Positions 2,688 to 33,424 are shown, numbered from the stretch's first letter. The stretch: DNA of 33,535 nt from a bacterium (GCA_963643175.1 CAVIJF010000001.1:226975-260509), one strand, 5' to 3'. Translations and numbers: made by a program. Notes: a model not told the origin generated them from the sequence alone.

Positions 2688-5600
2688 TCAGCGCTTCACA
2701 TCCCTGTCCAGGAGGTCAAAGGTCACGCCGCCCACGTGCGGATTGCTGTTCTTCTGCACGCGACGCTTCTCAAGGAACTTGATGCCGACAGAATCCTGCT
2801 GGAGCGTACCCAGCATATTCTCAATGTGTAACCCCGTCTCGCTGGCGCCGTCCTCCGTGCGGAATTCCACGCGCACCTCGGCACCGGTCATCGGCAGCTG
2901 GTTGGACAGGACGTAGCGGTAGGGAGTCAGCGTACCGTTCAGCTCAAACTCCACCACGGAGGCGGGCATCTCACAGCCGCTGTTATACACCGAGAAGCGG
3001 ACGTATGCCTTGCCCACGCCTGTGTAGGATGCGCGAAGCGTCAGCTCCACCATATCGGAATTCTTGATGAAGGGCGTCAGAACGCCGGTCGAGTAGACGT
3101 TGGTGCAGCCCTCCATCGACTGACTGAGCGCATCCAGCGTCGTGACTTTGACGTAAGAATGGAACGGAACCACATACACGGTGCCTTCCCACTTTCCGTC
3201 TGCCGTCACGGACTTGAGCAGTCCCTGACCGTTGGATCCGTCGCCGTCGCCAATCTGGATGATGTTGTAGGAAACGCCGTCACGGACAACGCCCACGGAC
3301 GAGGTTGTGCCGCCGGTGTAGCCCGGGCGGGGCATATTCTTCGATGCCAACAATTCTATGGCTTCCTTCTCTGCATTGGCCTGGCTGTCGCTGAAGGTGA
3401 TATGGTGCAGCATCCGGACGCCGCGGTTCCACATATACTCCAGCTGCGTGTAAGCGTCAGCGCCGCTGTCCTGCAGGGCGCAGTACTCACCGATGGAAAT
3501 ATTCCACTGTCCCGCACGGTTGGCAACAGTGATCCAGTTGTCGCCGCTGTTGGCAATATATCCGTAGCGCGTGCCGCCGTAGGATGTGCCACAGGTCAGG
3601 ACGGTATCAATGGGGGAAATGCGGGTGTCTGCCTGCCCGAGGAAACCGGACACGGCTTCTCCTTCCGGAATCTGATGCGCCGAAATGGACTCGGGCGGAT
3701 ACCCGGCAATCAGTGCCTCGCGGTATGCCTCCATGATGCGCTTGCTGACAATATAGCGGTTGTACAGTGCCCACTGCGTGAAGTAATCGCCTGCGTACTT
3801 GTCCCAGTCACCGCGACCGCTCTCACGCGGCGGGTCGATTTCCTCCACGCTGGCGAAGGTGGTTCCCAGCTTTTCGTTGATCTGCTCCAGCGTTCCGTAC
3901 TGCTGCAACAGGTACAGGCGGAAGCCCTGAATCATATTCTGGTTATAGTCTCCGACCGAGCCGGGCACATTGATTTCGTGCTCATGCACGGGCGACACAC
4001 CCACCAAATGCTCCGGGTTGCCGTTCTCACCCCGGAATTCCACCACCATGGAGCGCAGGAAGGAGCGCAGCGGATAAATACGCAGCTTGGCAAGGTCAAG
4101 GATACCGTCCGCATAGGTGCCGATATAGAAACTGGATTCCAGTTCCAGATATTCGGACGCCTCGCCGTTCTTTCCGATCGAAATGTAGTCGTGTGCGCCG
4201 GTATAGGAATTCACGTAATTCTGCAGATGGGCGGTGGCGGAAATCTTGTTCCAGCGGTGTGTGAAGCACGGCTCAAGGAACATATGGCTTGAGCGGAAGG
4301 AATTGATATATCCGCTGATGCCGCCGAAGGCATAGTTCGCATAGGTGGCGCTGTCAAAGACCTGTTCCACCTTTTCCGAAGTGGAGGCACTGTTCAGCTT
4401 GCTTATGATGCCGTTGGACAGGTCACAGCGGATATGCTGGAAGGAGCCGGTACTGACGTAGGTGTCATCGTTATCATTCCAGTAACGGGCGGTGTAGAAC
4501 ACGTTTTCGCGGAACGCGACGTCAAGAAGACCGCTGTTCCCTCCGTCATAGTCATACGTGACCACAAACGAACGGTTCTCCTCGCCCTCTACTTCAGGCA
4601 GGGTCACAATGTACCGTTCCCCGACATTGGCGGAAGCATACACACCGGTCGCCGTGTCCGGCAGAGAAATGCCGCTGTTCCGGAATTCGGCGGTACGTGC
4701 ATTCCCCTCGTAGACAAGCTGCTTTGCCTTAAAATGCAGGATAATGCTGTCCTCCGTGCCGTCATTCATGGTGCGCACGGTGGCGGCGACCTCAAGGGTC
4801 TCGCCGTCTGTCGTTGGCAGTGCGAAGGCGCAGTCCAGCGTGTTCCGGCTGATGACCGACCCGTCCGCCAGATTGATCAGTACTGTCGGCAGCTTGCCGT
4901 CAGCCGTCATGCTCTGGGACAGGACAAGCAGGGTTTCGTCCTTGCTGCCCGCCACGAAGTGTCCCGTCAGGATGGTGTAGGGTCCCTCCATGATGGGGCT
5001 GAGCGTAATCTCCATGCGCAGGGTGCCGAACGTATCAAACACACGGATGTCTCCGTTCCTGCCGTCGTGCTTTACAAAGGCAGCCGTTGCAATCAGCGTT
5101 TCGTTGCCGACCTGTGCAGCCGCTACCTGCACACCGCCGCGGACGGACGGGTCAAACGCAAGGAACTGTGCCGTGACCGTCTGCTGCTGATTCAGGACGC
5201 GCACAACCGTATGGTTCGCCTCGTTTGTGCCGTCTCCCATGAAGTAACCCTCGCCCGCCACGATGCGCGGTCCCGCCGTCACACCGTCAACGGCGCCGAT
5301 CTGGGCAAAGTAGACGCTGGACTGCACGCCCAGATTCAGATCCGGCGCGGTGTAGTAGACAGCGTTGTTTTTCCCGTTGGAGATGCGGTCAGGCAGATCG
5401 ATGAAGGCATTGACGATGTCCTCCTCCGAGGCGTCGGTCATGTACAGGTACATTGCCTCCAGCGTGTAGAGATCATGGTAGGTATCCAGCGTTTCGCCGC
5501 CGTCAAAGAACATGACCAGCTTGTGGTCGTACACCAGCACCTTCTTGCCGAGATCGGCGGCAATCAGCTGCGGCGCCGCCATGCCGGTCAGAGCACCGCC

Positions 5601-6041
5601 GGTCACGCCGTAGGTATCGTACACAAAGTCCGCCAGAACCTCGACCTCACCGTCGGACAGCGCGACCAGATCGGCGGAATACTCGTTCAGCTCGGCGCCG
5701 CGGTACCCCTTGGCGGTGTTCAGACCGAGCACCAGCGCGTCGTTGCCCGCCAATACGTCATGAATGCGGGTCGCCGTGATATACTGAGCGTAGTCTGGCG
5801 TATCCGCTTCGGGGAATACGACAGCCGAGGCGTGCGGATCGGTTTCCGTCTCGGTGTCGGACCCGGCGGTGTCAGGCTCTCCGGAGCCGGATTCGTCGGG
5901 TACAATCTGGATGGTTTCAGGCAGCGTAGTCTCTCCGTCGCCGCTTTCCGTGCGGCAGGAAACGGAACACAGAACGGTGAGAAGCAGGACTGCCAGCGTC
6001 AGCAGGATGCCAAGCACAAGGTATTTCGCATTGTTTTTCAT
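2688..6041 (-). CDS. Large secreted lipoprotein (1117 aa) with FG-GAP-like beta-propeller repeats and a C-terminal glycoside-hydrolase-like region
   Basis: Signal/lipobox-like N-terminus MKNNAKYLVLGILLTLAVLLLTVLCSVSC. Repeated ..GDG.. / ..DLG.. motifs are present (FMGDGTNEA, HDGRNGDIRVFD). The C-terminal segment FRLYLLQQYGTLEQINEKLGTTFASVEEIDPP...GDWDKYAGDYFTQW resembles the GH42 / DUF4832-type motif. RBS GGGAAAGGAAACC. The family assignment is tentative. Confidence 0.7.
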   Translation of the reverse strand: MKNNAKYLVLGILLTLAVLLLTVLCSVSCRTESGDGETTLPETIQIVPDESGSGEPDTAGSDTETETDPHASAVVFPEADTPDYAQYITATRIHDVLAGNDALVLGLNTAKGYRGAELNEYSADLVALSDGEVEVLADFVYDTYGVTGGALTGMAAPQLIAADLGKKVLVYDHKLVMFFDGGETLDTYHDLYTLEAMYLYMTDASEEDIVNAFIDLPDRISNGKNNAVYYTAPDLNLGVQSSVYFAQIGAVDGVTAGPRIVAGEGYFMGDGTNEANHTVVRVLNQQQTVTAQFLAFDPSVRGGVQVAAAQVGNETLIATAAFVKHDGRNGDIRVFDTFGTLRMEITLSPIMEGPYTILTGHFVAGSKDETLLVLSQSMTADGKLPTVLINLADGSVISRNTLDCAFALPTTDGETLEVAATVRTMNDGTEDSIILHFKAKQLVYEGNARTAEFRNSGISLPDTATGVYASANVGERYIVTLPEVEGEENRSFVVTYDYDGGNSGLLDVAFRENVFYTARYWNDNDDTYVSTGSFQHIRCDLSNGIISKLNSASTSEKVEQVFDSATYANYAFGGISGYINSFRSSHMFLEPCFTHRWNKISATAHLQNYVNSYTGAHDYISIGKNGEASEYLELESSFYIGTYADGILDLAKLRIYPLRSFLRSMVVEFRGENGNPEHLVGVSPVHEHEINVPGSVGDYNQNMIQGFRLYLLQQYGTLEQINEKLGTTFASVEEIDPPRESGRGDWDKYAGDYFTQWALYNRYIVSKRIMEAYREALIAGYPPESISAHQIPEGEAVSGFLGQADTRISPIDTVLTCGTSYGGTRYGYIANSGDNWITVANRAGQWNISIGEYCALQDSGADAYTQLEYMWNRGVRMLHHITFSDSQANAEKEAIELLASKNMPRPGYTGGTTSSVGVVRDGVSYNIIQIGDGDGSNGQGLLKSVTADGKWEGTVYVVPFHSYVKVTTLDALSQSMEGCTNVYSTGVLTPFIKNSDMVELTLRASYTGVGKAYVRFSVYNSGCEMPASVVEFELNGTLTPYRYVLSNQLPMTGAEVRVEFRTEDGASETGLHIENMLGTLQQDSVGIKFLEKRRVQKNSNPHVGGVTFDLLDRDVKR

Positions 6042-6089
6042 GTTGTGGTTTCCTTTCCCGTTAAGGTCTGATTTGGTTCGTCTTCCGGA

Positions 6090-22408: not shown

Positions 22409-23824
22409 ATGGGACTGATTAAGGCAGCTTTCGGCGCAACAGGCGGCGTACTTGCCGACCAGTGGAAGGAATTCTTCTACTGCGATGCGCTGGACAAAAA
22501 CACGCTGGTCGTGCGGGGGCAGAAGAAAACAACCCGCCGCTCCTCCAACACCAAGGGCAACGACAATGTCATTTCCAACGGTTCCGGCATCGCCGTGGCG
22601 GACGGACAGTGCATGATCATCGTGGATCAGGGGAAGGTCGCGGAGGTCTGCGCCGAGCCGGGCGAATTTACATGGGACAACTCCAGTGAGCCGAGCGTTT
22701 TCACGGGCAGGTTCGGCGACTCGCTCAAGAAGACCTTTGCCGCCATCGGTAAGCGCTTTGCCTACGGCGGCGACCCCGGCAAGGATCAGCGCGTGTACTA
22801 CTTCAACACCAAGGAAATTCTGGACAACAAGTTCGGCACTGCCACGCCCATTGATTTCCGCGTGGTGGACAGCCGCATCGGCATCGACCGCGATGTGCGC
22901 CTGCGCGTCAACGGAACCTATTCCTACCGCATTTCAGACCCCATTCTGTTCTACACAAACGTCTGCGGCAATGTCTCGGGCAGCTATGAGCGCTCTGAAC
23001 TGGATGGTCAGCTCAAGACCGAGTTTGTCTCGGCACTCATGCCCGCCGTGGGGCGTATGTCCGAGCTGGAGCTGCGTCCGAACCAGCTGATGAACCACAC
23101 CAAGGAACTGCGGGACTATCTCAACCAGGAGCTGACCGCCGAGTGGGCGGAAAAGCGCGGACTGTCGGTCGTATCGGTCGCACTGGGCGGCGTCACACTG
23201 TCCGAGGAGGACGCCGAACTGCTCCGGCAGGATCAGCGCGCGGGAACCTACCGCGATCCCGGCATGGCTGCCGGTATGCTGGCGACCGCGCAGGCGGAAG
23301 CCATGCGCACTGCCGCTGGCAATACGGGCGGCGCGATGACAGGCTTCATGGGTATGGGCATGGCGATGAACGCCGGCGCCAACACGCAGAACCTGTACGC
23401 CATGCAGCAGCAACAGCAGGCGGCACAGCCCCAGCCCGCCCCGGCGCAGGCGCCTGCCGCCGACGGCTGGGTCTGCCCCGGCTGCGGAAAAACCGTCACT
23501 GGGAAGTTCTGCCCCGAGTGCGGTGCAAAGAAGCCGGAGGCAAAGCCGGCGGACAGCTGGATCTGCCCGGAATGCGGAAAGACCGCGACCGGCAAATTCT
23601 GCCCTGAGTGCGGATCGGCGCGTCCGGCGGACAGCAGCTGGGTCTGCTCCTGCGGCGCACGGAACACCGGAAAGTTCTGCTCCGAATGCGGCGCCAGAAA
23701 GCCGGAGGCGGCTCCCCGCTACCGGTGCGATAAGTGCGGCTGGGTTCCGGAGGATCCGACCACCCCGCCCAAGTTCTGCCCGGAGTGCGGAAATCGGTTC
23801 GACGAAAACGACATCGTGCGCTGA
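22409..23824 (+). CDS. SPFH/Band-7 (stomatin/prohibitin-like) protein with four C-terminal tandem zinc ribbons (COG4260 / YdjI-like)
   Basis: N-terminus MGLIKAAFGATGGVLADQWKEFFYCD.... A Q/A/P-rich linker (MQQQQQAAQPQPAPAQAPAADG) is followed by four repeats of W[VI]CP[GE]CGKT.TGKFCPECGA.KP (23468-23824). RBS AAAGGAG. Confidence 0.82.
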   Translation: MGLIKAAFGATGGVLADQWKEFFYCDALDKNTLVVRGQKKTTRRSSNTKGNDNVISNGSGIAVADGQCMIIVDQGKVAEVCAEPGEFTWDNSSEPSVFTGRFGDSLKKTFAAIGKRFAYGGDPGKDQRVYYFNTKEILDNKFGTATPIDFRVVDSRIGIDRDVRLRVNGTYSYRISDPILFYTNVCGNVSGSYERSELDGQLKTEFVSALMPAVGRMSELELRPNQLMNHTKELRDYLNQELTAEWAEKRGLSVVSVALGGVTLSEEDAELLRQDQRAGTYRDPGMAAGMLATAQAEAMRTAAGNTGGAMTGFMGMGMAMNAGANTQNLYAMQQQQQAAQPQPAPAQAPAADGWVCPGCGKTVTGKFCPECGAKKPEAKPADSWICPECGKTATGKFCPECGSARPADSSWVCSCGARNTGKFCSECGARKPEAAPRYRCDKCGWVPEDPTTPPKFCPECGNRFDENDIVR

Positions 23825-23871
23825 TTTTACACTGTCATAGATAGGCATAGATAGGTAGGAGGGCGTTCCCC

Positions 23872-24960
23872 ATGGAACAAACTATTCAGGAATTCAAGTG
23901 CCCCTGCTGCAGCGGCGCCATTGAATTCGACACCAGTCTCCAGAAAATGAAATGTCCGTATTGCGATACGGAATTCGAGCTGGACACGCTCCGGCAGTTT
24001 GACAAAACAATCCGGGAGGAACAGCCGGATCACCTGGACTGGAAAACCGAAAGCCAGTCATGGGATGCGGCGGAGGCGCAGAGCATGGCAAGTTATGTCT
24101 GCAACTCCTGCGGCGGCGAAATCATCGCGGAAGCGGCTGCCGCCGCCACCTTCTGCCCCTTCTGCGGGAACCCTGTCATTCTCAGGGGCAATTTGGAGGG
24201 CGATCTGCGTCCCGATCTGGTTATCCCGTTCAAGGTGGACAAAAAAGCCGCCGTCGCGGCGATGGCAAAGCATCTGTCCGGCAAGCGGCTCCTGCCCCGG
24301 GTATTCAAGGACGAGAACCACCTGCAGGAAATCAAGGGAATCTATGTTCCCTTCTGGCTGTACGATGCGGACTGCGAGACCGGCATCCGCTTCCGCGCAA
24401 CGCAGGTGCGCACATGGAGCAGCCGAGACTACATCTACACCGAAACCTCGCACTTTGCAGTCTTCCGCCGCGGCTCGCTGTCCTTTGAGCACGTCCCGGT
24501 GGACGGATCGACCCAGATTCCGAATGACCTGATGGAATCCATTGAGCCGTTTGACTACCGCGAGGCGGTGGACTTCCGGACGGCGTACCTGTCCGGTTTC
24601 TTCGCCGACCGCTACAACGAGTCTGCCTCCGACTGTGAGGAACGCGCCAACGAACGCATCCGGAACAGCACGCAGGCGGCGGTCATGGCTACGGTGCAGG
24701 GGTACTCCAGCATCACGCCGGAGCACATCTCGGTACAGATGCAGGCAGGCAAAACGCTCTATGCCCTGCTTCCGGTCTGGATATTGACCACCAAGTGGAA
24801 CGGACAAAACTATACCTTCGCCATGAACGGGCAGACAGGTAAATTTGTGGGCAATCTGCCGATGGACAAGGCGGCATACCACAAGTGGCTCTGGGGACTG
24901 ACCGCCGCCGTCAGCGCGGGTATCATCGGGCTGTCCTACCTCATCCACCTGCTGACCTGA
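23872..24960 (+). CDS. Membrane protein with two N-terminal zinc ribbons (YdjG-like)
   Basis: CPCCSG..(17 aa)..CPYCDTEF and CNSCGG..(14 aa)..CPFCGNPV, with a C-terminal TM segment WLWGLTAAVSAGIIGLSYLIHLL. RBS AGGAGGG. Assignment as a YdjG homolog is from memory of the B. subtilis pspA-ydjGHI operon. Confidence 0.7.
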   Translation: MEQTIQEFKCPCCSGAIEFDTSLQKMKCPYCDTEFELDTLRQFDKTIREEQPDHLDWKTESQSWDAAEAQSMASYVCNSCGGEIIAEAAAAATFCPFCGNPVILRGNLEGDLRPDLVIPFKVDKKAAVAAMAKHLSGKRLLPRVFKDENHLQEIKGIYVPFWLYDADCETGIRFRATQVRTWSSRDYIYTETSHFAVFRRGSLSFEHVPVDGSTQIPNDLMESIEPFDYREAVDFRTAYLSGFFADRYNESASDCEERANERIRNSTQAAVMATVQGYSSITPEHISVQMQAGKTLYALLPVWILTTKWNGQNYTFAMNGQTGKFVGNLPMDKAAYHKWLWGLTAAVSAGIIGLSYLIHLLT

Positions 24961-24973
24961 GGAGGTGAGGCGT

Positions 24974-25777
24974 ATGAAAAAGACAGTACAGCCCACCCGG
25001 CGCAGATTTGCCGGGATACTGGCGGCAGTCATACTCGGTATTTGCCTGCTGATGACGGTCGGAATACTGACGGTCAGTGCGGCAGACACGCACCCGCCCC
25101 GGTTGATTGACAATGCGGGACTGCTGAGTCAGGCGGATGCAGACTCCCTGCGCACCCTGCTGGACGAGTACAGCGAGGAACTGCAGATGGACATTGTGGT
25201 CGTGACAACCACCACACTCGGCGGCAAAACACCGCAGGACTATGCAGACGACTACTTTGACTACAATGGCTACGGATACGGCGAGAACCGGGACGGCGTT
25301 CTGTTCCTGCGCTACATCAACGGCACCGCCAAGGAAGTGTGGATTTCCACCAGCGGCGAAGGCATCCATGCTGTTTCGGATTCGGTCATGGAAACCATTT
25401 TTGACAATATCTCCTCCGACATTTACAGCGGGCAGTATGCCGCCGCCTTCCGGACCTTCGCGCAGAACGTGCGGGACGAGGTAATAAGCTACCGGGCATA
25501 CGATCCCATCTGGATTTTCATCGGGTTGGCAGTCGGTCTGGGCGTCGGACTGATCGTGACGGGCACCATGCGCTCCTCGCTGAAATCTGTCAGGCAGCAG
25601 CGCTTCGCCGGAAACTACATCAAGGACGGCAGTCTCAACATCACGGAAGCGCGGGATATTTTCCTGTACCGCACTGTGACGCGGGTTGCCAAGCCCAAGG
25701 AATCCTCCGGCGGCGGTTCCTCCACGCATACAAGCTCTTCCGGCAGTTCGCACGGCGGCGGCGGAAGATCCATGTAG
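24974..25777 (+). CDS. TPM-domain (TLP18.3/Psb32/MOLO-1-like) membrane protein (YdjH-like)
   Basis: Signal/TM N-terminus, a TPM-like core (...LLDEYSEELQMDIVVVTTTTLGGKTPQDYADDYFDYNGYGYGENRDGVLFL...), a C-terminal TM segment and a Gly/Ser-rich tail. The ATG at 24974 has a GAGGAGGTGAGG RBS; the track ORF begins at the GTG at 24965. Confidence 0.78.
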   Translation: MKKTVQPTRRRFAGILAAVILGICLLMTVGILTVSAADTHPPRLIDNAGLLSQADADSLRTLLDEYSEELQMDIVVVTTTTLGGKTPQDYADDYFDYNGYGYGENRDGVLFLRYINGTAKEVWISTSGEGIHAVSDSVMETIFDNISSDIYSGQYAAAFRTFAQNVRDEVISYRAYDPIWIFIGLAVGLGVGLIVTGTMRSSLKSVRQQRFAGNYIKDGSLNITEARDIFLYRTVTRVAKPKESSGGGSSTHTSSSGSSHGGGGRSM

Positions 25778-25845: not shown

Positions 25846-26760
25846 TTATTCCGCGGAATTTTCCGCGGAATTTTCCGCGGAATTTTCCGTATTCTCTTTC
25901 ATCATCCGCTCCACCGTCGCGGCAAGATGTGCCACGCAGTCCGCCATGAAGCGGCAGGCAGTCGGGCGGAAATCCTTATCGTAATGGTACAGGAAGCGCC
26001 CCGCCTCCAACGTCATATCGCCCCGGTAGCGGATGTCCGCCAGCGCACGGCAAACCGCCTCCCACCGGATGTTGCCCATACCGGGCAGATTGTGCAGGTC
26101 GTTGACATAGTCCACATCGTGGATGTGCAGGGCGCCCAGCCGATCGTGACCGAGGACGCGCACGGCATCCTCCGGTTCCCGCCCGCACAGTGCCACGTGC
26201 CCCAAGTCGAGACAGACCGTGAAGCTCTCCGGATCGTCCAGCGTGTCGTAATACGCCGCCAGCTCGTGCGGGTCTGCGCACACGTCGTCCACGATGTACC
26301 GGTTGACCGGATGGTTCTGCCACATATTCTCAATGGCGATGCGCACGCCCGCCTCGCGGGCATACGATGCAAGCGAACGGTAAAACGCCATGTTCATATC
26401 GAACAGTTCCCGCTCGTGACCGTAGTAGCGTCCCTTTTGCAGGGGGTGCACCACCACCTGCCGGATGCCGAGCCGTCCGGCAAAGGCAAATACGCGCGGC
26501 ATCTGCGGCACCAGCACCTCCGTATAGTGCGCGTACCCGCCGCCGCAGGGCGCGTGCGCCTGATTAAACACCACGCCCCGGCTGTTCGCCAACGCCCGGA
26601 GCCGGTCGGCGGTTTCACGCCAGTCCTCCCGGAACAGAAAATCGTTTTCTTCGCTCAGATTCAGGTCGATTGCCGGAAACCCGGCGTCCATCATCAGCTC
26701 CAGCCCGCGCTCCAGTCCGTACTCACTGATCATGCCGGATGTTGTGGATGAATACAGCAT
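25846..26760 (-). CDS. Sugar phosphate isomerase/epimerase (xylose-isomerase-like TIM-barrel family)
   Basis: ...VRIAIENMW...HIHD... motifs typical of AP-endonuclease-2 / xylose-isomerase-like TIM barrels. The track ORF 25846..27081 is trimmed to the ATG at 26760, which has an AAGGGAG RBS. Confidence 0.75.
   Translation of the reverse strand: MLYSSTTSGMISEYGLERGLELMMDAGFPAIDLNLSEENDFLFREDWRETADRLRALANSRGVVFNQAHAPCGGGYAHYTEVLVPQMPRVFAFAGRLGIRQVVVHPLQKGRYYGHERELFDMNMAFYRSLASYAREAGVRIAIENMWQNHPVNRYIVDDVCADPHELAAYYDTLDDPESFTVCLDLGHVALCGREPEDAVRVLGHDRLGALHIHDVDYVNDLHNLPGMGNIRWEAVCRALADIRYRGDMTLEAGRFLYHYDKDFRPTACRFMADCVAHLAATVERMMKENTENSAENSAENSAE
25849..25889. repeat. Tandem array of about 3.4 copies of a 12-bp unit whose 10-bp core is palindromic (TTCCGCGGAA + TT)
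   Basis: ttccgcggaa-tt-ttccgcggaa-tt-ttccgcggaa-tt-ttccg. It lies inside the last codons of the isomerase gene, encoding ENSAENSAENSAE*. Confidence 0.8.
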
Positions 26761-26845: not shown

Positions 26846-29245
26846 TTACTGCGCCAGCCCGGCGAGATATTTCTTAATTTCCGGCAATCCGGCGTACTTT
26901 TCGGTCGCGCCGTCCGAAACAACCACCAGCGTGGGTGCCTGACGGACGCCGTACTCCTTCGCCATGTCGATGTGCTCGTTGGCATAGATTTTCTCGTAAA
27001 CCATGCCTGCCTTATCCAGCGCCACCGCCGCAATCTTGCAGTTGGGGCAGGTGGGTGTGGCGAACAGGTACATCCGCGCATTGCAGGTCTGCGGCTCCGC
27101 CGTCACGGGCGCCGCCTCTCCGGCAGTGCAGGACGCCGCACCGTCCGAACGGGGACCGACGTGCGTCAGATGGGAGGCGCCGAGGTCGTAGGTCTTGCGG
27201 TCCTTGAACTCCTGCGACTTGCCGTCGTTCCAGTTCTGCACGGGGCGGTAGTAGCCGGTGATACGGCTGTATACCTCCGTCTTCTGACCGCAGATGGGGC
27301 AGGTATACTGCTCGCCGGTCAGATAGCCGTGGTCGCGGCAGACCGAATAGGTGGGGGACAGCGTGTAGTAGGGCAGGCGGTAGTTCTCAGCAATCTTGCG
27401 CACCAGCGCCGCCGCCGCCTTCCAGTCAGGCAGCTTCTCGCCGAGGAAGGCGTGGAAAACCGTACCCGATGTGTACAGCGTCTGCAGCTCGTCCTGAATA
27501 TCCAGCGCCGTGAAGATGTCCTCCGTGTAACCGACCGGCAGGTGGGAGGAGTTGGTATAGTACGGGGTGTCGCCGTCGCGGGCAGCCGTGATGATGTCCG
27601 GGAAGCGCTCCTTGTCATGCTTGGCGAAGCGGTAGGAAGTGGACTCGGCGGGCGTTGCCTCCAGATTGTACAGATCGCCGTACATCTCCTGATAGTCGGA
27701 CAGGCGCTCCCGCATATGGTTCAGCACCTCGGCAGTAAACTTCTGCGCCGCCGTATGCGTCAGATCCTCACGTAGCCAGTTGGCATTGAGGCACGCCTCG
27801 TTCATGCCGACCAGACCGATGGTGGAAAAGTGATTGTCGAAGGAGCCGAGATAGCGCTTGGTGTAGGGATACAGTCCGTTCTCCATCAGCTGGGTAATGA
27901 CGCGGCGCTTGATTTTGAGCGAGCGGGCGGAGATATCCATCAGCCGGTCAAGGCGGCGGTAGAAGTCCTCCACGTTGCTTGCCTGATAGGCAATGCTGGG
28001 CATATTGATGGTCACGACGCCCACCGAACCGGTAGATTCGCCGCTTCCGAAGAAACCGCCGGACTTCTTGCGCAGCTCGCGCAGGTCAAGGCGCAGGCGG
28101 CAGCACATGGAACGGACATCGGTCGGCTCCATATCGCTGTTGACATAGTTGGAGAAGTACGGCGTGCCGTACTTGGATGTCATCTCAAACAGCAGGCGGT
28201 TGTTTTCGGTATCCGACCAGTCAAAATTGCGGGTTATGGAGTAGGTGGGAATGGGGTACTGGAAGCCGCGCCCGTTGGCGTCGCCCTCAATCATGGTCTC
28301 GATGAACGCCTTGTTTACGATGTCCATCTCGTGCTGGCAGTCCTTGTACTTGAAGTCCATTTCCTTTCCGCCAATAATGCAGTTCTGCTCGGCGAGATCA
28401 GGCGGAACCACCCAGTCCAGCGTAATGTTGGAGAAAGGCGCCTGCGTGCCCCAGCGGGAAGGCGTATTGACGCCGAAGATGAAGGACTCGATGCACTTCT
28501 TCACGGCGTCGTAACTCAGATTGTCGTACTTGACGAAAGGCGCAAGGTATGTATCGAAGGAGGAGAACGCCTGCGCGCCCGCCCACTCGTTCTGCATGAT
28601 ACCGAGGAAGTTGACCATCTGGTTGCACAGCGTCGCCAGATGCTTGGCGGGCGCCGAAGTAATCTTACCGGTCACGCCGCCCAGTCCCTCCTGAATCAGC
28701 TGCTTGAGCGACCATCCGGCGCAATAGCCGGTCAGCATGGAGAGGTCATGCAGGTGGATGTCCGCATTGCGGTGCGCATCGGCGATTTCCTCGTCGTAGA
28801 CCTCGCTCAGCCAGTAGTTGGCGGTGATGGCACCGGAGTTGGACAGAATCAGACCGCCGACCGAATAGGTAACGGTGGAGTTTTCCTTGACACGCCAGTC
28901 GTTGACCTTGAGGTAGTTGTCCACAATCTTTTTGTAGTCCAGCAGCGTATTGCTCATATTGCGCATACGCTCACGCTGTTTACGGTACAGGATGTAGGAC
29001 TTGGCGACCTCGTCATAGCCCGCCTTAATCAGAACCGACTCCACGCTGTCCTGAATATCCTCCACCGACACCCGATCCTCCTTGATTTTGGACTGGAAGT
29101 CGGATGTGACCTTCAGCGCCAGAAAGTCGATGGTATCATCGTTATACTGCAAATCGCAGGCATCAAACGCCTTGATGATTGCATTCCGTATCTTGCTCAG
29201 GTTGAAATTGACAACCTTGCCGTCCCGTTTGACTACTGTATACAT
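26846..29245 (-). CDS. nrdD: Anaerobic ribonucleoside-triphosphate reductase (class III RNR) with a fused C-terminal glutaredoxin-like domain
   Basis: N-terminal ATP-cone (MYTVVKRDGKVVNFNLSKIRNAI...). C-terminal zinc ribbon plus glycyl-radical motif CPICGQKTEVYSRITGYYRPVQNWNDGKSQEFKDRKTYD. An in-frame extension of about 105 aa follows. RBS AAAGGAGAGG. Confidence 0.93.
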   Translation of the reverse strand: MYTVVKRDGKVVNFNLSKIRNAIIKAFDACDLQYNDDTIDFLALKVTSDFQSKIKEDRVSVEDIQDSVESVLIKAGYDEVAKSYILYRKQRERMRNMSNTLLDYKKIVDNYLKVNDWRVKENSTVTYSVGGLILSNSGAITANYWLSEVYDEEIADAHRNADIHLHDLSMLTGYCAGWSLKQLIQEGLGGVTGKITSAPAKHLATLCNQMVNFLGIMQNEWAGAQAFSSFDTYLAPFVKYDNLSYDAVKKCIESFIFGVNTPSRWGTQAPFSNITLDWVVPPDLAEQNCIIGGKEMDFKYKDCQHEMDIVNKAFIETMIEGDANGRGFQYPIPTYSITRNFDWSDTENNRLLFEMTSKYGTPYFSNYVNSDMEPTDVRSMCCRLRLDLRELRKKSGGFFGSGESTGSVGVVTINMPSIAYQASNVEDFYRRLDRLMDISARSLKIKRRVITQLMENGLYPYTKRYLGSFDNHFSTIGLVGMNEACLNANWLREDLTHTAAQKFTAEVLNHMRERLSDYQEMYGDLYNLEATPAESTSYRFAKHDKERFPDIITAARDGDTPYYTNSSHLPVGYTEDIFTALDIQDELQTLYTSGTVFHAFLGEKLPDWKAAAALVRKIAENYRLPYYTLSPTYSVCRDHGYLTGEQYTCPICGQKTEVYSRITGYYRPVQNWNDGKSQEFKDRKTYDLGASHLTHVGPRSDGAASCTAGEAAPVTAEPQTCNARMYLFATPTCPNCKIAAVALDKAGMVYEKIYANEHIDMAKEYGVRQAPTLVVVSDGATEKYAGLPEIKKYLAGLAQ
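26849..27073 (-). other. Glutaredoxin/NrdH-like thioredoxin-fold domain (CPNC motif) fused in-frame to the NrdD C-terminus
   Basis: MYLFATPTCPNCKIAAVALDKAGMVYEKIYANEHIDMAKEYGVRQAPTLVVVSDGATEKYAGLPEIKKYLAGLAQ*. It has a CxxC motif, about 75 aa of beta-alpha-beta topology, no intervening stop codon and no RBS before the internal Met. Confidence 0.7.
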
Positions 29246-29311: not shown

Positions 29312-29340
29312 ACTATACCATACTTGCCACTGTTTGTCAA
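29312..29340 (-). promoter_or_regulatory. Near-consensus sigma-70 promoter for nrdD
   Basis: Minus strand: TTGACA (29335-29340), 17-nt spacer, TATAGT (29312-29317), about 67 nt upstream of the ATG. Confidence 0.5.
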
Positions 29341-30208: not shown

Positions 30209-31300
30209 TCAGTTGCCGTTCGGGAAAGGACCGTACAGGGTCAGCGCCGGAACGTGGCGCACGGTAAAGGGGGCGTACTCGCTGTTGTCCGGCAGTGCAC
30301 CGGTTTCCGCATCCGGGTTGAGCGTGACCAGCGTGCCGCCCATGTGACCGGGAATATGATAGTCGTACTGCCCTGTCTTGAGTCCGTATGTCCAGCGGAC
30401 ACCCTGCCAGAGCACGGAGGTGTTGATGGCGTGGTCATGCCCCACAAACACGCCGTCCGTGCAGGCGGCACGCATGGCATCGCGGAAGCCCTCCGGCGAC
30501 GCGAACGCGCTGTGCATCTCCCGGCGGCAGCCGAAGTCCCCGTTGCGCGCAGGCACGTCCGCGCCGATAACATAGCTGCGCCGGATGTCCTCCGTCTCGT
30601 AGCCGCATGAACGGGCGGAAAGCAGGAAGTCGGTCGTGGGAATATGGAAAGCAAGCAATCCGGGAATATCGCCCGCCTGCCCGACCGCCTCACCGCGTGC
30701 GCGGAGCCACGCGACCTGATCCGGCGCGAAGCCCGCCGTCCGACACAGCGCCGGGTCGGTTCCGCCGCCGCAGCCGTTGGAATCCATCATGTACAGGACG
30801 CGGCACAGCCGTCCGCCGACCGATATGCCGACCGTGTAGTTGCCGTGCCCGGTCACATCCCCCCGGCGGAACAGGCAGTACGACCCGCTCTCCAGCAGGT
30901 CACACTGCCATGCCACCCCGCGGGCGCTTTCGTTGTCGTGATTGCCGAACACCGGTGCCCACGGAATGCACAGCCCGTTCATGAAGGCGCAGAACTGCTC
31001 CAGACTCCGCCCGCTGTCGTCAAATTCCCCGTACACGATGTCGCCCGTGATGAAAATCAAATCCGGGTTGGTCTGCGCCACCAGGCTGCGGATGTGCCCG
31101 TAGCACTCGGCATCCGCGTTTTCCGGCGCCCAGCATACGATTTCCCGGTCGTTCAGCCGTCCCGGGAACCGCCTCTGGCTGGCGTCAATAACCTGCATAT
31201 CCGTCAGCTGCAGGATGCGCGGTATGCGCCCCGCAGGCAGCCGCACCAGAAAATCACAGCCGGGTGCGTCGGCGTTGGCCATATACTGTCGGTCTGCCAT
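30209..31300 (-). CDS. Metallophosphoesterase (calcineurin-like phosphoesterase family)
   Basis: ...LIFITGDIVYGE... and ...VFGNHDNE... metal-binding motifs. RBS GGGGGAAAG. Confidence 0.82.
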   Translation of the reverse strand: MADRQYMANADAPGCDFLVRLPAGRIPRILQLTDMQVIDASQRRFPGRLNDREIVCWAPENADAECYGHIRSLVAQTNPDLIFITGDIVYGEFDDSGRSLEQFCAFMNGLCIPWAPVFGNHDNESARGVAWQCDLLESGSYCLFRRGDVTGHGNYTVGISVGGRLCRVLYMMDSNGCGGGTDPALCRTAGFAPDQVAWLRARGEAVGQAGDIPGLLAFHIPTTDFLLSARSCGYETEDIRRSYVIGADVPARNGDFGCRREMHSAFASPEGFRDAMRAACTDGVFVGHDHAINTSVLWQGVRWTYGLKTGQYDYHIPGHMGGTLVTLNPDAETGALPDNSEYAPFTVRHVPALTLYGPFPNGN

Positions 31301-31325
31301 ATCTGTTCTTTCCCCCGTTGTTGTT

Positions 31326-32261
31326 TTATTTAAGGAACCCGTTGATAATCTGTTCCTCTGCCTGCTTTTCCGTCAGACCGAGCGTCATCAGCTTGGTCAG
31401 CTGCTCTCCGGCAATCTTTCCGATAGCCGCCTCATGAATCAGCGATGCTTCGACATGGTTGGCGGCGATTTCCGGCTTTGCCGTGACCGATGCGGAATCC
31501 ATGATGATGGCATCGCATTCGGTATGCCCGGAGCAGCGGTTGTTCCCGCGCACGTCCGAGACAAACAGCTGCCGGGAGGAATCGCGTGCAACCGAGCGCG
31601 ACACGACGTGCGTGCCGCACCCGGCACCGTTGAGATCGACCCGGAAATGCGTCTCCGCCCATTGGGCGCCGTGCGTCATGATTTTTTCATGAACAACCAG
31701 CGTGGCTCGGTCGGCAAGCTCGGCGTCCGTCTCGCGGCGGGTGGAGTCCACGCCCTTGATCTGCGCCGTTTCCATTTCCATGTAGCTGTCTGCGGCAAGG
31801 TGTACCTCCGTTGTCGGGTTCATGACCCGCTCGCCGGTTCCCTCCCCCTCGCCGTAGTGCTTTTCCACATACCGGACCCGCGCCCGCTCGCCGACCCAGA
31901 AGCGGTGGATGCCGCTGTGCTCGCTGGTCTCGGCACCGCCGTTGTGAATGCCGCATCCGGCGACAATGGTGACATCACAGTCCTCACCGACGTGGAAGTC
32001 GTTGTAGACCAGCTCTTTCAGTCCCGTCTGCGCCAGCAGAACCGGAATGTGGACGCTTTCGTTCTTTGTGCCCGGCTCGATGTAAATATCAATACCGGCA
32101 ACATCGGTTTTCTTCTCAATGCGGATGTGCGCGGAGGAATTCTTGCCGAACAGGGCGCCGTTGATACGCAGGGAGTACGCCCCCTCCGGCATCTCGTGCA
32201 GTCCGGACACCTCCGCCAGCAGCTGCTTCTGAATGGCGTCAAGCCCCTTGAATTCAGCCAT
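31326..32261 (-). CDS. Fe-S cluster assembly protein, SufB/SufD family (short form)
   Basis: 311 aa with the beta-helix-rich composition typical of SufBD. It overlaps the upstream sufC stop by 8 nt (operon). Confidence 0.8.
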   Translation of the reverse strand: MAEFKGLDAIQKQLLAEVSGLHEMPEGAYSLRINGALFGKNSSAHIRIEKKTDVAGIDIYIEPGTKNESVHIPVLLAQTGLKELVYNDFHVGEDCDVTIVAGCGIHNGGAETSEHSGIHRFWVGERARVRYVEKHYGEGEGTGERVMNPTTEVHLAADSYMEMETAQIKGVDSTRRETDAELADRATLVVHEKIMTHGAQWAETHFRVDLNGAGCGTHVVSRSVARDSSRQLFVSDVRGNNRCSGHTECDAIIMDSASVTAKPEIAANHVEASLIHEAAIGKIAGEQLTKLMTLGLTEKQAEEQIINGFLK

Positions 32262-33003
32262 GGCGTATCTCCTTTCCCTGTGCTACGGCACAGCCCGCCG
32301 TCACATGGAGCAGTCCGGGCAGGACTTCCTCCCGGCTACCGTCCGCCGTTACGCGACCGCCGGACAGCACAATCACGCGGTCGGCAATATCCAGAATGCG
32401 CTCCTGATGCGAGATAATCAAGATTGTGCCGTGTGTCTGCTCATACATATTCCGGAACACGCCGATGAGATTCTGGAAGCTCCACAGATCGATACCCGCC
32501 TCCGGCTCGTCAAAGACCGAAAACTTTGTGCCGCGCGCCAGAATCATGGCAATCTCAATGCGCTTCAACTCTCCGCCGGACAGCGACGCATTGACTTCGC
32601 GGTTCACATACTCCTTCGCGCACAGCCCCACCTCCGAGAGGTAATCGCAGACCTGCCCCATGGACAGCGGCTTTCCTGCGGCAAGGGTCAGCAGGTCGCG
32701 CACGGTCAGCCCCTTGAAGCGAACCGGCTGCTGAAAGGCATAGCTGATGCCCGCGCGTGCCCGATCGGTAACGGACATATCCGTGATATCCTGCCCATCC
32801 AGCAGAATGCGCCCCTCTGCGGGGCGGATAATGCCCGCAATCAAGCGTGCCAGTGTGGATTTTCCGCTTCCGTTCGGACCGGTGATTGCCACAAAGCGTT
32901 CCTGTACGGTGAGATTGACGTCGGACAGGATTTCGGTTTCCTTCCCGTCTCCGGCGGGGGCGGAATCCTTGACCCGATACGTAATGTGTGATAGTGTCAG
33001 CAT
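32254..33003 (-). CDS. sufC: Fe-S cluster assembly ATPase SufC (ABC ATPase)
   Basis: Walker A motif GPNGSGKST, ABC signature LSGGELKR, Walker B motif FSVFDEPEAGIDL. The track ORF 32254..33171 is trimmed to the ATG at 33003, which has a GGAAGGAAGGAAA RBS. Confidence 0.9.
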   Translation of the reverse strand: MLTLSHITYRVKDSAPAGDGKETEILSDVNLTVQERFVAITGPNGSGKSTLARLIAGIIRPAEGRILLDGQDITDMSVTDRARAGISYAFQQPVRFKGLTVRDLLTLAAGKPLSMGQVCDYLSEVGLCAKEYVNREVNASLSGGELKRIEIAMILARGTKFSVFDEPEAGIDLWSFQNLIGVFRNMYEQTHGTILIISHQERILDIADRVIVLSGGRVTADGSREEVLPGLLHVTAGCAVAQGKEIRHG

Positions 33004-33114
33004 GACATTTCCTTCCTTCCGGGGAGACGCTGACTGGCAGGCTTTCCGTGCCGATACCGGGTCAGCGCTTCCCTGAACATTGCGGAACCGCACGGGGCGG
33101 CTCCCTACCCGTAT

Positions 33115-33143
33115 AATATACCACAGTTTGCCGATTTTTTCAA
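33115..33143 (-). promoter_or_regulatory. Sigma-70 promoter for the sufC-sufBD operon
   Basis: Minus strand: TTGAAA, 17-nt spacer, TGgTATATT (extended -10). The 5' UTR is about 110 nt and carries a 7-bp inverted repeat (cgctgac...gtcagcg) just before the RBS. Confidence 0.5.
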
Positions 33144-33424
33144 CGGGTTTTCCGCTTTTTTCTTGGGACAAGAGCAGTTGACTTTTGGGGATAAGGATAC
33201 CGGGGGCGTCGCCCTACGCGGCAGTGCAACACGCCCGGTATGCAGTGTCGCCTCTGGCACAGATGCAGGGTTGCAAGGGACGAAGCCCCTTGCATAAGAC
33301 AACCTTGAACCTCCTGCTTCCCGTTGGAAAGGGGCACCGTGGAATGGTGTGCTATACTATAAGTAGAGTCGACAATCCCCTAAGAATCTGATATAAGGGC
33401 ACCTCTAAAAATTCTGCCCATATC

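Follow-up and report, generated by a model that had tools for sequence, protein, structure and literature searches.

A thioredoxin-fold domain fused in frame to the C terminus of class III ribonucleotide reductases in gut Clostridia, a probable tethered reductant

Class III ribonucleotide reductases (RNRs) supply DNA precursors in strict and facultative anaerobes. The stretch analysed here, called the window throughout, comprises 33,535 nucleotides (nt) of bacterial DNA (GCA_963643175.1, CAVIJF010000001.1:226975-260509), and carries on its minus strand a gene in which the class III reductase NrdD runs on in frame, through a linker, into a C-terminal thioredoxin-fold domain with a CPNC redox motif (Table 1). 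The open reading frame (ORF) of 799 amino acids (aa), confirmed as a sequence-only reading of the same DNA had described it, matches the curated NCBIfam models NF006126 ('ribonucleoside triphosphate reductase', 1134 bits against a cutoff of 548, residues 2–687) and TIGR02487 (519 bits against a cutoff of 326), as well as the Pfam NRDD model PF13597 (E = 1.3e-189), and its core is alignable to the solved NrdDs 4coi/4u3e and 8p23. The glycyl-radical stretch SRITGYYRPVQNWNDGKSQEFKDRKTYD spans residues 660–687, with SRITGYYRPVxNWN invariant in 37 fused homologues, and the predicted zinc-ribbon-like motif is kept in the alignment of fused homologues and aligns to elements of the Thermotoga maritima and P. 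copri NrdDs.

Table 1. Coordinates of the fusion gene, its domains and residues, and the elements upstream of it (window numbering).
Feature	Coordinates	Strand	Basis or remark
nrdG, radical-SAM activase, 232 aa	29430..30128	(-)	TIGR02495 NrdG2, 211.7 bits vs cutoff 131.15
Two NrdR-box-like 16-mers, ACACAATATCTTGACA and ACACAAAATATAGAAA	29349..29395	(-)	Starts 31 bp apart, between nrdG and nrdD
Promoter-like TTGACA-17 nt-TATAGT with TG extension (predicted)	29312..29340	(-)	11 of 12 consensus matches; 67 nt upstream of ATG
nrdD::trx fusion gene	26846..29245	(-)	799 codons + stop, ATG start
ATP-cone domain (allosteric on/off), residues 3-92	28970..29239	(-)	Pfam PF03477, 90 bits vs cutoff 25.8
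NrdD catalytic barrel + glycyl-radical domain, residues 121-686	27188..28885	(-)	PF13597, profile 1-562 of 562
Cys175, beta-A active-site cysteine (GYC175AGW)	28721..28723	(-)	Alignment to T. maritima PYC125FAY
Finger loop M380-C381-C382-R383, double-cysteine type with Met	28097..28108	(-)	Alignment to T. maritima 328-SCCR-331
Glu529 (YNLE529ATPAE), putative active-site proton donor	27659..27661	(-)	Alignment to Glu of T. maritima FNIEQVPAE
Zinc-ribbon-like motif C636-x2-H639 ... C649-x2-C652 (predicted)	27290..27340	(-)	Just N-terminal of glycyl-radical loop
Glycyl-radical motif R661-I-T-G664-Y665	27251..27265	(-)	Sequence reading + alignment to solved NrdDs
Linker, residues 688-724, ~37 aa	27074..27184	(-)	
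Thioredoxin-fold domain, residues 725-799, 75 aa	26849..27073	(-)	Sequence MYLFATPTCPNCK...LAGLAQ
Redox motif C733-P-N-C736, start of helix 1	27038..27049	(-)	T-C-P-N-C invariant in alignment A1
Pro771 in Q-A-P-T, cis-proline loop signature	26933..26935	(-)	A-P-T invariant in alignment A1

The fusion is real and evolutionarily maintained, and is not an assembly error. No stop codon lies in the ORF between the NrdD core and the tail, and the sole GGAG upstream of codon 725, the internal Met before which no ribosome-binding site had been seen, stands at ~19–22 nt, too distant for a normal ribosome-binding site. Residue 725 is Val rather than Met in most close relatives, so that an internal start is not conserved, and independent initiation of the tail is not well supported either. 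The close-relative set consists of the 120 proteins listed (P0078–P0197) at 95–100% identity from a full-protein search, drawn from many independent assemblies. Checked against this set for a missed stop or frameshift, the ORF proved to be shared at exactly 799 aa by 120/120, all with CPNC and the cis-Pro loop PTLV intact; P0112, a member of the set, has index entries in 493 collection blocks. The ratio of nonsynonymous to synonymous substitution rates (dN/dS), estimated between the window and three relatives at ~90% nucleotide identity, is ~0.015 for the NrdD core, ~0.09 for the tail and ~0.7 for the linker. The tail is a selected, functional domain on a nearly neutral tether.

Assignment of the tail to the CxxC thioredoxin fold, as proposed from the sequence, is firm at the family level by profile, AlphaFold2 and Foldseek comparison. 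For the single sequence the Pfam Thioredoxin score is marginal (25–26 bits against a cutoff of 23.5), and Glutaredoxin PF00462 gives 23.2–24.3 bits for the tail alone (cutoff 22.9) and 19.2 bits in the full protein, these weak matches spanning residues ~727–786. Within alignment A1, which holds 31 aligned tails, PF00462 was matched by 31/31 at E ≤ 1e-3 (best 3.4e-10), and the A1 profile matched 183 distinct PDB sequences at E ≤ 0.01, with a thioredoxin fold in 60 of the 60 listed; the best matches were the thermophile 'glutaredoxin-like' protein disulfide oxidoreductases (PDOs) 1j08 and 1a8l, thioredoxins, MJ0307 (1fo5) and NrdH (4hs1, 1r7h). Columns invariant in A1 are an L, T-C-P-N-C and A-P-T, the latter two being the helix-1 dithiol and the cis-proline loop. 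An AlphaFold2 model of the tail, produced with A1, has a mean predicted local distance difference test score of 95.5 and the topology beta-alpha-beta-alpha-beta-beta-alpha (strands 2–7, 29–32, 50–55 and 58–63; helices 12–23, 37–43 and 65–75; window residue = model + 722), with CPNC at model residues 11–14 and A-P-T at 48–50. Top Foldseek matches in the PDB were almost all thioredoxins, with a few domains of the protein disulfide isomerase family and one KaiB chain, at template modelling (TM) scores of ~0.75–0.79. The top match, 9bxs_E (TM 0.77), is a chain of a Bacillus subtilis class Ib RNR complex, and is taken to be B. subtilis thioredoxin because that sequence is among the chains of entry 9bxs.

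The label 'glutaredoxin/NrdH-like' first given to the tail stood for its size and probable function, and did not stand against the curated models, all of whose cutoffs were missed: NrdH-redoxin TIGR02194 (19.4–23.2 bits, cutoff 85.75), the YruB family TIGR02196 (17.9–21.4 bits, cutoff 88.55) and classical thioredoxin TIGR01068 (17.7–22.3 bits, cutoff 96.8). No WSGFRP motif is visible in residues 725–799, where CPNC stands in place of CVQC, and CPYC and glutathione-binding motifs are not evident in the tail sequence. In contrast to classical thioredoxin, the tail has TCPNC rather than WCGPC and 75 aa rather than ~105 aa, and is without the N-terminal beta-alpha unit. By these scores it falls outside the NrdH, YruB and classical thioredoxin families. 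The precomputed Pfam annotation of 117/120 close relatives contains only the ATP-cone and NRDD, with the tail below automated thresholds, an annotation blind spot through which the fusion in the window lineage is missed by domain-architecture surveys.

Core residues were compared by alignment to T. maritima NrdD structures, the landmarks being checked in PMC4493059, in which T. maritima Cys125 is the conserved active-site cysteine (Aurelius et al. 2015); similarity between the T. maritima core and that of the window protein is distant (E = 2e-37). The beta-A cysteine C175 corresponds to T. maritima C125, the finger loop reads S-M380-C-C-R against 328-SCCR-331 in T. maritima and MGCR in the formate-type P. 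copri enzyme, and the active-site acid is E529, where T. maritima has the Glu of FNIEQV (E495, as numbered from the alignment ruler) and P. copri has Leu. Through C175, the double-Cys finger loop and E529, the core thus carries the three-cysteine-plus-glutamate set associated with thiol-dependent reduction. The earlier claim of a thiol-type, NrdD2-like enzyme is borne out at these positions, which match T. maritima, and is too narrow at the Met, which is kept (MCCR), so that formate use is still possible by sequence. According to Burnim et al. (2022, PMC9669993), the MCCR finger loop occurs in 83% of double-cysteine class III enzymes, MCCR enzymes carry components for either formate or thioredoxin, and 'thioredoxin only' is reserved for small subclades without the finger-loop Met. 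With Met380 present before CCR (SMCCRL), the window protein lies outside those 'thioredoxin-only' subclades and within the MCCR majority. To our knowledge only a handful of class III RNRs have been characterised, and we know of no characterised enzyme of the MCCR group.

To follow the distribution of the fusion, one genome for each GTDB species was scanned with a pattern; this yielded at least 591 confirmed matching stretches, from which 80 loci (L001–L080) were kept. Almost all of these are labelled as Clostridia (Acutalibacteraceae, Oscillospiraceae, Candidatus Fimenecus, Ruminococcaceae, Butyricicoccaceae and some Lachnospiraceae), with one labelled Lentisphaeria and one Bacteroidaceae. The domain follows the NrdD glycyl-radical motif in frame in 74 of the 77 species loci where the regular expression located it, the remaining 3 ending at contig edges. 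The motifs RSMCCR and GYCAGW are present in 62/62 and 51/51, respectively, of the related fusions long enough to show them, and [YF]NLEATPAE in 70 of 77 related ORFs, the other 7 being truncated. Searched exhaustively with HMMER, a set of 1.84 billion representative proteins gave 652 matches to the 112-residue tail at E ≤ 1e-3 and 196 at E ≤ 1e-10, most of them short contig-end fragments, and CPNC is nearly invariant, being found in nearly all of 220 retrieved tail homologues.

Stand-alone CPNC proteins appear rare, the only convincing one being P0066, which is not near nrdD. Three further candidates were set aside: P0063, directly 5' of a TrxB-like gene, lies on contigs that end at its 5' side, so that it could be a fusion cut short; L088 may be a fusion broken by a frameshift; and coverage of L089 is 1.4×. 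A few tail homologues sit on other architectures (P0315, P0247, P0306 and P0203), among them small zinc-ribbon proteins. One zinc-ribbon/TPR-like protein of 877 aa has DPHC in its tail, the first Cys of the motif being lost, and in one protein of 255 aa a CPNC domain comes straight after the N-terminal half of a TrxB of the QNL type, which makes it either a chimera or a true reductase–redoxin fusion. A phage search gave one close match, L084 (MT835493.1, 'UNVERIFIED: Bacteriophage sp.', an unannotated human faecal scaffold), on which the three genes recur in the same arrangement, with ORFs of 231 aa (NrdG-like), 802 aa (NrdD::CPNC fusion) and 302 aa (TrxB-like). Either a bacterial contig has been wrongly labelled as phage, or a phage has captured the whole module. 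The scaffold was not accepted as evidence of phage carriage of the fusion. The other phage matches are distant NrdH-like proteins.

The linker begins with a semi-conserved stretch of ~11 residues (LGASHLTHVGP), and its remainder varies, with many A, E, P and T residues, in the window lineage, within which amino-acid divergence of the linker is 44%. Across the 74 species its length has a median of 30 residues (range 26–45), and A, E, S and T are abundant in it. Of the 74 species linkers, 32 contain a CxC or CC pair, frequently with acidic neighbours (e.g. ECACEE, VCECV); the sequences are related to one another, so that this count does not represent independent events; shuffling of residues within each linker gave CxC/CC in 5.7 linkers on average and 13 at most (1000 shuffles). 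By analogy with the shuttle cysteines at the C terminus of RNRs from classes I and II, which it resembles, the pair may be a facultative shuttle dithiol. It is unlikely to be essential, because 25/74 species linkers have no Cys and the two linker cysteines of the window, C706 and C721, are 15 residues apart, C706 being unique to the window sequence: C721 is kept in 120/120 close relatives, and the position of C706 is Gly in 117/120.

Directly upstream of the fusion gene lies nrdG (Pfam Radical_SAM and Fer4_12), which occupies the same position in 54 of the 80 related loci. The two 16-mers between nrdG and nrdD have 4 and 3 mismatches, respectively, to ACACWAWATWTWGTGT, which we take to be the NrdR-box consensus, and 16 such sites occur in 67,070 window positions; of 48 related loci, 37 have at least one NrdR-like box upstream of nrdD, and 25 a tandem pair. 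In the window the boxes sit just upstream of the near-consensus promoter, which suggests that nrdD may be under its own NrdR-controlled promoter, separate from nrdG. An Rfam scan of the window gave no match.

In 75 of the 80 loci from related species, the fusion is followed on its 3' side by a same-strand gene for a TrxB-like protein of ~300 aa (nrdG – nrdD::Trx – trxB-like), at position ~4220–5200 in most of them; the gap has a median of ~25–30 nt, and the two genes are adjacent in all but L025 (~3.6 kb). All 62 genes found by a CxxCD pattern share the redox site CAVCD, a CAVC- or CALC-type site is present in 73/73 aligned sequences with GGGNSA kept, and the NADPH 2'-phosphate motif HRRxxxR has become QNLxxxT in ~60 of the 73, HRR being kept in 11. 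Scores against the low-Mr thioredoxin reductase model TIGR01292 were 314 and 326.5 bits (equivalog cutoff 343.45). The best PDB match was 7jyp_A (252 bits, with the same VQNLPYLT motif), an entry for which no literature was found, and several ordinary thioredoxin reductases scored above 200 bits. Since HRRxxxR is lost, the protein was considered as a clostridial ferredoxin-dependent flavin thioredoxin reductase, and this was rejected as a family assignment, the Clostridium acetobutylicum structures 6gna–6gnd matching at only 116–133 bits and GxGxxA being retained. TrxB-like proteins without HRRxxxR would class as 'non-NTR' by the rule of PMC10880999, and among reductases that lack HRR some prefer NADH and others do not depend on NAD(P)H (PMC5627308), so that the electron donor is not callable from sequence.

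From the maintained fusion, the thiol-type active site, the exclusive partnership with NrdD, the TrxB-like neighbour and the precedent of the Facklamia ignava fusion described below, we infer that the tail is probably a tethered reductant for the class III NrdD. In this scheme, NrdG would install the radical on Gly664, and each turnover would oxidise Cys175 with Cys381 or Cys382, with Glu529 as the putative proton donor, as in the thioredoxin-dependent Neisseria bacilliformis enzyme. The tethered CPNC domain would then swing in on its linker and re-reduce the active-site disulfide of its own or the partner subunit, and the CPNC disulfide would in turn be re-reduced by a low-molecular-weight flavoprotein of the thioredoxin-reductase type, such as the one encoded directly 3' in most related species.

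Several observations weigh against a tethered reductant. At the protein level the tail has evolved ~7× faster than the core, and Met380 is retained, with which the components for formate-dependent chemistry would be kept as described in PMC9669993. All examined fusions share one NrdD subtype, and the link between tail and active site could reflect a single ancestral fusion. No TrxB-like gene is present anywhere in the window, nor within 10 kb on either side in the 95–96% relatives, nor nearby in four other species, and the window yielded no gene for a thioredoxin reductase, a ferredoxin or formate metabolism. In the window organism the task must fall either to a reductase whose gene lies elsewhere or to a general thioredoxin reductase. 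The tethered reductant proposed in the sequence-only reading draws strong and independent backing from the TrxB-like partner gene of the related species, which has no adjacent counterpart in the window and its own lineage.

The alternative that survives best, although we regard it as unlikely, is that the tail maintains the enzyme, keeping the zinc-ribbon cysteines C636, C649 and C652 or other surface cysteines reduced for radical (re-)installation by NrdG, e.g. after transient oxygen, while the electrons for turnover come from formate or free thioredoxin. The attachment of the tail beside the zinc-ribbon and glycyl-radical region agrees with such a role, the retained Met380 fits formate chemistry, and the lack of a dedicated reductase near the fusion in the window lineage fits a low flux. 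There is also a precedent, in that thioredoxin reportedly activates the formate-type class III enzyme of E. coli (Padovani et al. 2001, J Biol Chem 276:9587, as cited in PMC4390871). However, 0 of 74 species-level fusions are on an MGCR (formate-type) NrdD, though the same zinc ribbon is found there, no residue of the thiol-type set is missing from the active site, and the dedicated reductase gene that abuts the fusion in 94% of related species points to a steady flow of electrons more than to intermittent repair. The argument from exclusivity to CCR enzymes is not decisive, because all fusions may descend from a single event.

Less probable still is a sensor or antioxidant role, in which the CPNC domain would sense or buffer thiol redox state or oxidants, modulating or protecting the oxygen-sensitive enzyme, or would serve other clients and merely travel with nrdD. 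The domain family is overwhelmingly on NrdD, its redox dithiol and cis-Pro loop are invariant, its operon partner is a disulfide reductase and not a peroxidase, and the NrdR-like boxes would place the gene under regulation for deoxynucleotide supply and not for stress; this is set against the homologous CPNC domains sometimes found on unrelated N-terminal parts (P0315, P0247, P0306) or alone (P0066), the faster evolution of the tail than of the core, and the multiple stress-linked thioredoxin systems of Clostridia (PMC10880999). An artefact, whether two genes joined by a missed stop or frameshift in assembly or a tail that is a decaying remnant, is already effectively refuted and has next to no probability left: the NrdD ORF of the low-coverage metagenomic contig L088 stops 19 nt before a separate CPNC ORF and automated Pfam fails to see the tail in nearly all close relatives, but the same ORF recurs in 120 independent assemblies with CPNC in every one, in-frame fusions occur in 74 species-level genomes, and the tail dN/dS is low.

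Redoxin–RNR fusions and thiol-dependent class III enzymes are both already known kinds. Methanosarcina barkeri 'NrdD3', the subject of work by Wei and colleagues in 2015 (cited in PMC5704485), reportedly has an operon-encoded NrdH-like redoxin and a ferredoxin:disulfide reductase. The cluster in 75 of the 80 relatives is like it in encoding a dedicated redoxin and reductase with nrdD, whereas the archaeal system has separate polypeptides and an iron-sulfur reductase where the relatives of the window protein have a fusion and a TrxB-family flavoprotein; the M. barkeri finger loop is QCCR without the Glu (PMC9669993). The class III 'NrdD2' of N. bacilliformis is thioredoxin-dependent (Wei et al. 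2014, via PMC9669993 and PMC4390871). The window protein shares with this enzyme and its structural relative T. maritima NrdD (4u3e, 4coi) the glycyl radical, the beta-A Cys, the double-Cys finger loop and the active-site Glu, a thioredoxin-type electron source (here a probable one), and the lack of a C-terminal shuttle cysteine pair of the class I/II type; they differ in that those enzymes use free general thioredoxin and have SCCR, whereas the window protein has a covalent redoxin of a distinct CPNC family and MCCR.

In the F. ignava Grx::ATP-cone::NrdB protein, the fused Grx was shown experimentally to be an efficient RNR reductant (Rozman Grinberg et al. 2018, PMC6187632). The likeness is a redoxin covalently joined to an RNR subunit; unlike the window protein, that enzyme is of class I, with a glutathione-dependent GrxC-type domain at the N terminus of the radical-generating subunit. 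The NrdH-redoxin of class Ib RNR (1r7h, 4hs1, 4f2i) is also ~75 aa, glutaredoxin-sized and dedicated to an RNR, is reduced by thioredoxin reductase and not by glutathione, and is matched by the A1 profile at E ~1e-6, but the tail differs from it in motif and model score, as given above, and in being attached to the catalytic subunit of another RNR class. The best profile matches of all, at E ~2e-8 to 2e-7, were the two-domain thermophile PDOs (1a8l, 1j08, 2ywm, 2ayt) and the MJ0307 type (1fo5), and the best sub-threshold NCBIfam matches of the tail are to the same families; in contrast to the tail, which scores far below their cutoffs, these proteins are stand-alone, have CPYC/CPHC-type motifs and have no RNR link.

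The only prior literature found on a redoxin–NrdD fusion was one row of Table S1 of PMC6187632, 'Glutaredoxin:NrdD' from Lachnospiraceae bacterium TWA4 (NrdDd, WP_082039398.1), a table row without analysis. A 2022 survey of RNR insertions and extensions gives no redoxin extension in class III, the words 'glutaredoxin' and 'redoxin' being absent from its text, and public annotation of these proteins is just 'ribonucleoside triphosphate reductase'. The C-terminal CPNC domain on an MCCR-type NrdD, its scale across gut Clostridia and its usual operon partner appear undescribed.

Going further, and tentatively, the C-terminal extension may be a complete dedicated electron-delivery arm, with a CPNC redoxin on a flexible tether, a CxC/CC shuttle pair within that tether in ~43% of species, and in most cases a supply of electrons from the TrxB-like flavoprotein of its own operon, which is without HRRxxxR and so would use NADH, ferredoxin or another donor; we regard this full version as possible but doubtful.

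Elsewhere in the window, the xylose-isomerase-like TIM-barrel gene downstream of the fusion has a short C-terminal tandem peptide repeat (…ENTENSAENSAENSAE) at 25846..25900, which reads FPRNFPRNFPRN on the other strand and is overlapped by a terminator-like palindrome, TTCCGCGGAATTTTCCGCGGAA, at 25861..25882. At 22409..25777 lie clustered genes for an SPFH/Band-7 protein that bears a double zinc ribbon, a protein of 362 aa with zinc-ribbon motifs and a TPM-domain protein, and their order is kept in the 96% relatives (L085–L087). Upstream of nrdG, at 30209..33171, the window has a metallophosphoesterase and SufBD/SufC, where L085–L087 carry genes for a small zf_Tbcl protein and for an ECF-transporter module, which places a synteny break between these close lineages directly upstream of nrdG. 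An ORF of 1117 aa at 2688..6041 (-) has no Pfam match, nor do the overlapping ORFs at 3159..4292 (+) and 4434..6071 (+); the region encodes a large uncharacterised protein, or these are the long spurious ORFs typical of 60% GC DNA.

A redoxin that is under purifying selection and usually comes with its own reductase gene acts as a 'Rosetta stone', and argues that a large MCCR clade runs on a thiol relay, the parts of which are named, for reconstitution in vitro, by the fusion and its neighbours. The tether is also a structural handle, in that a trapped C736S mixed disulfide could show how a redoxin gains access to a class III active site without a class I-style shuttle. If the extension is indeed an electron-delivery arm, it would reveal what physiologically reduces the 'MCCR plus Glu' class III enzymes, which form the majority and are common in abundant gut Clostridia, and would provide a natural, trappable complex of a redoxin reaching the buried class III active site. 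Since the source organisms are very abundant gut Oscillospiraceae and Acutalibacteraceae, this chemistry would be relevant to the nucleotide supply of the microbiome.

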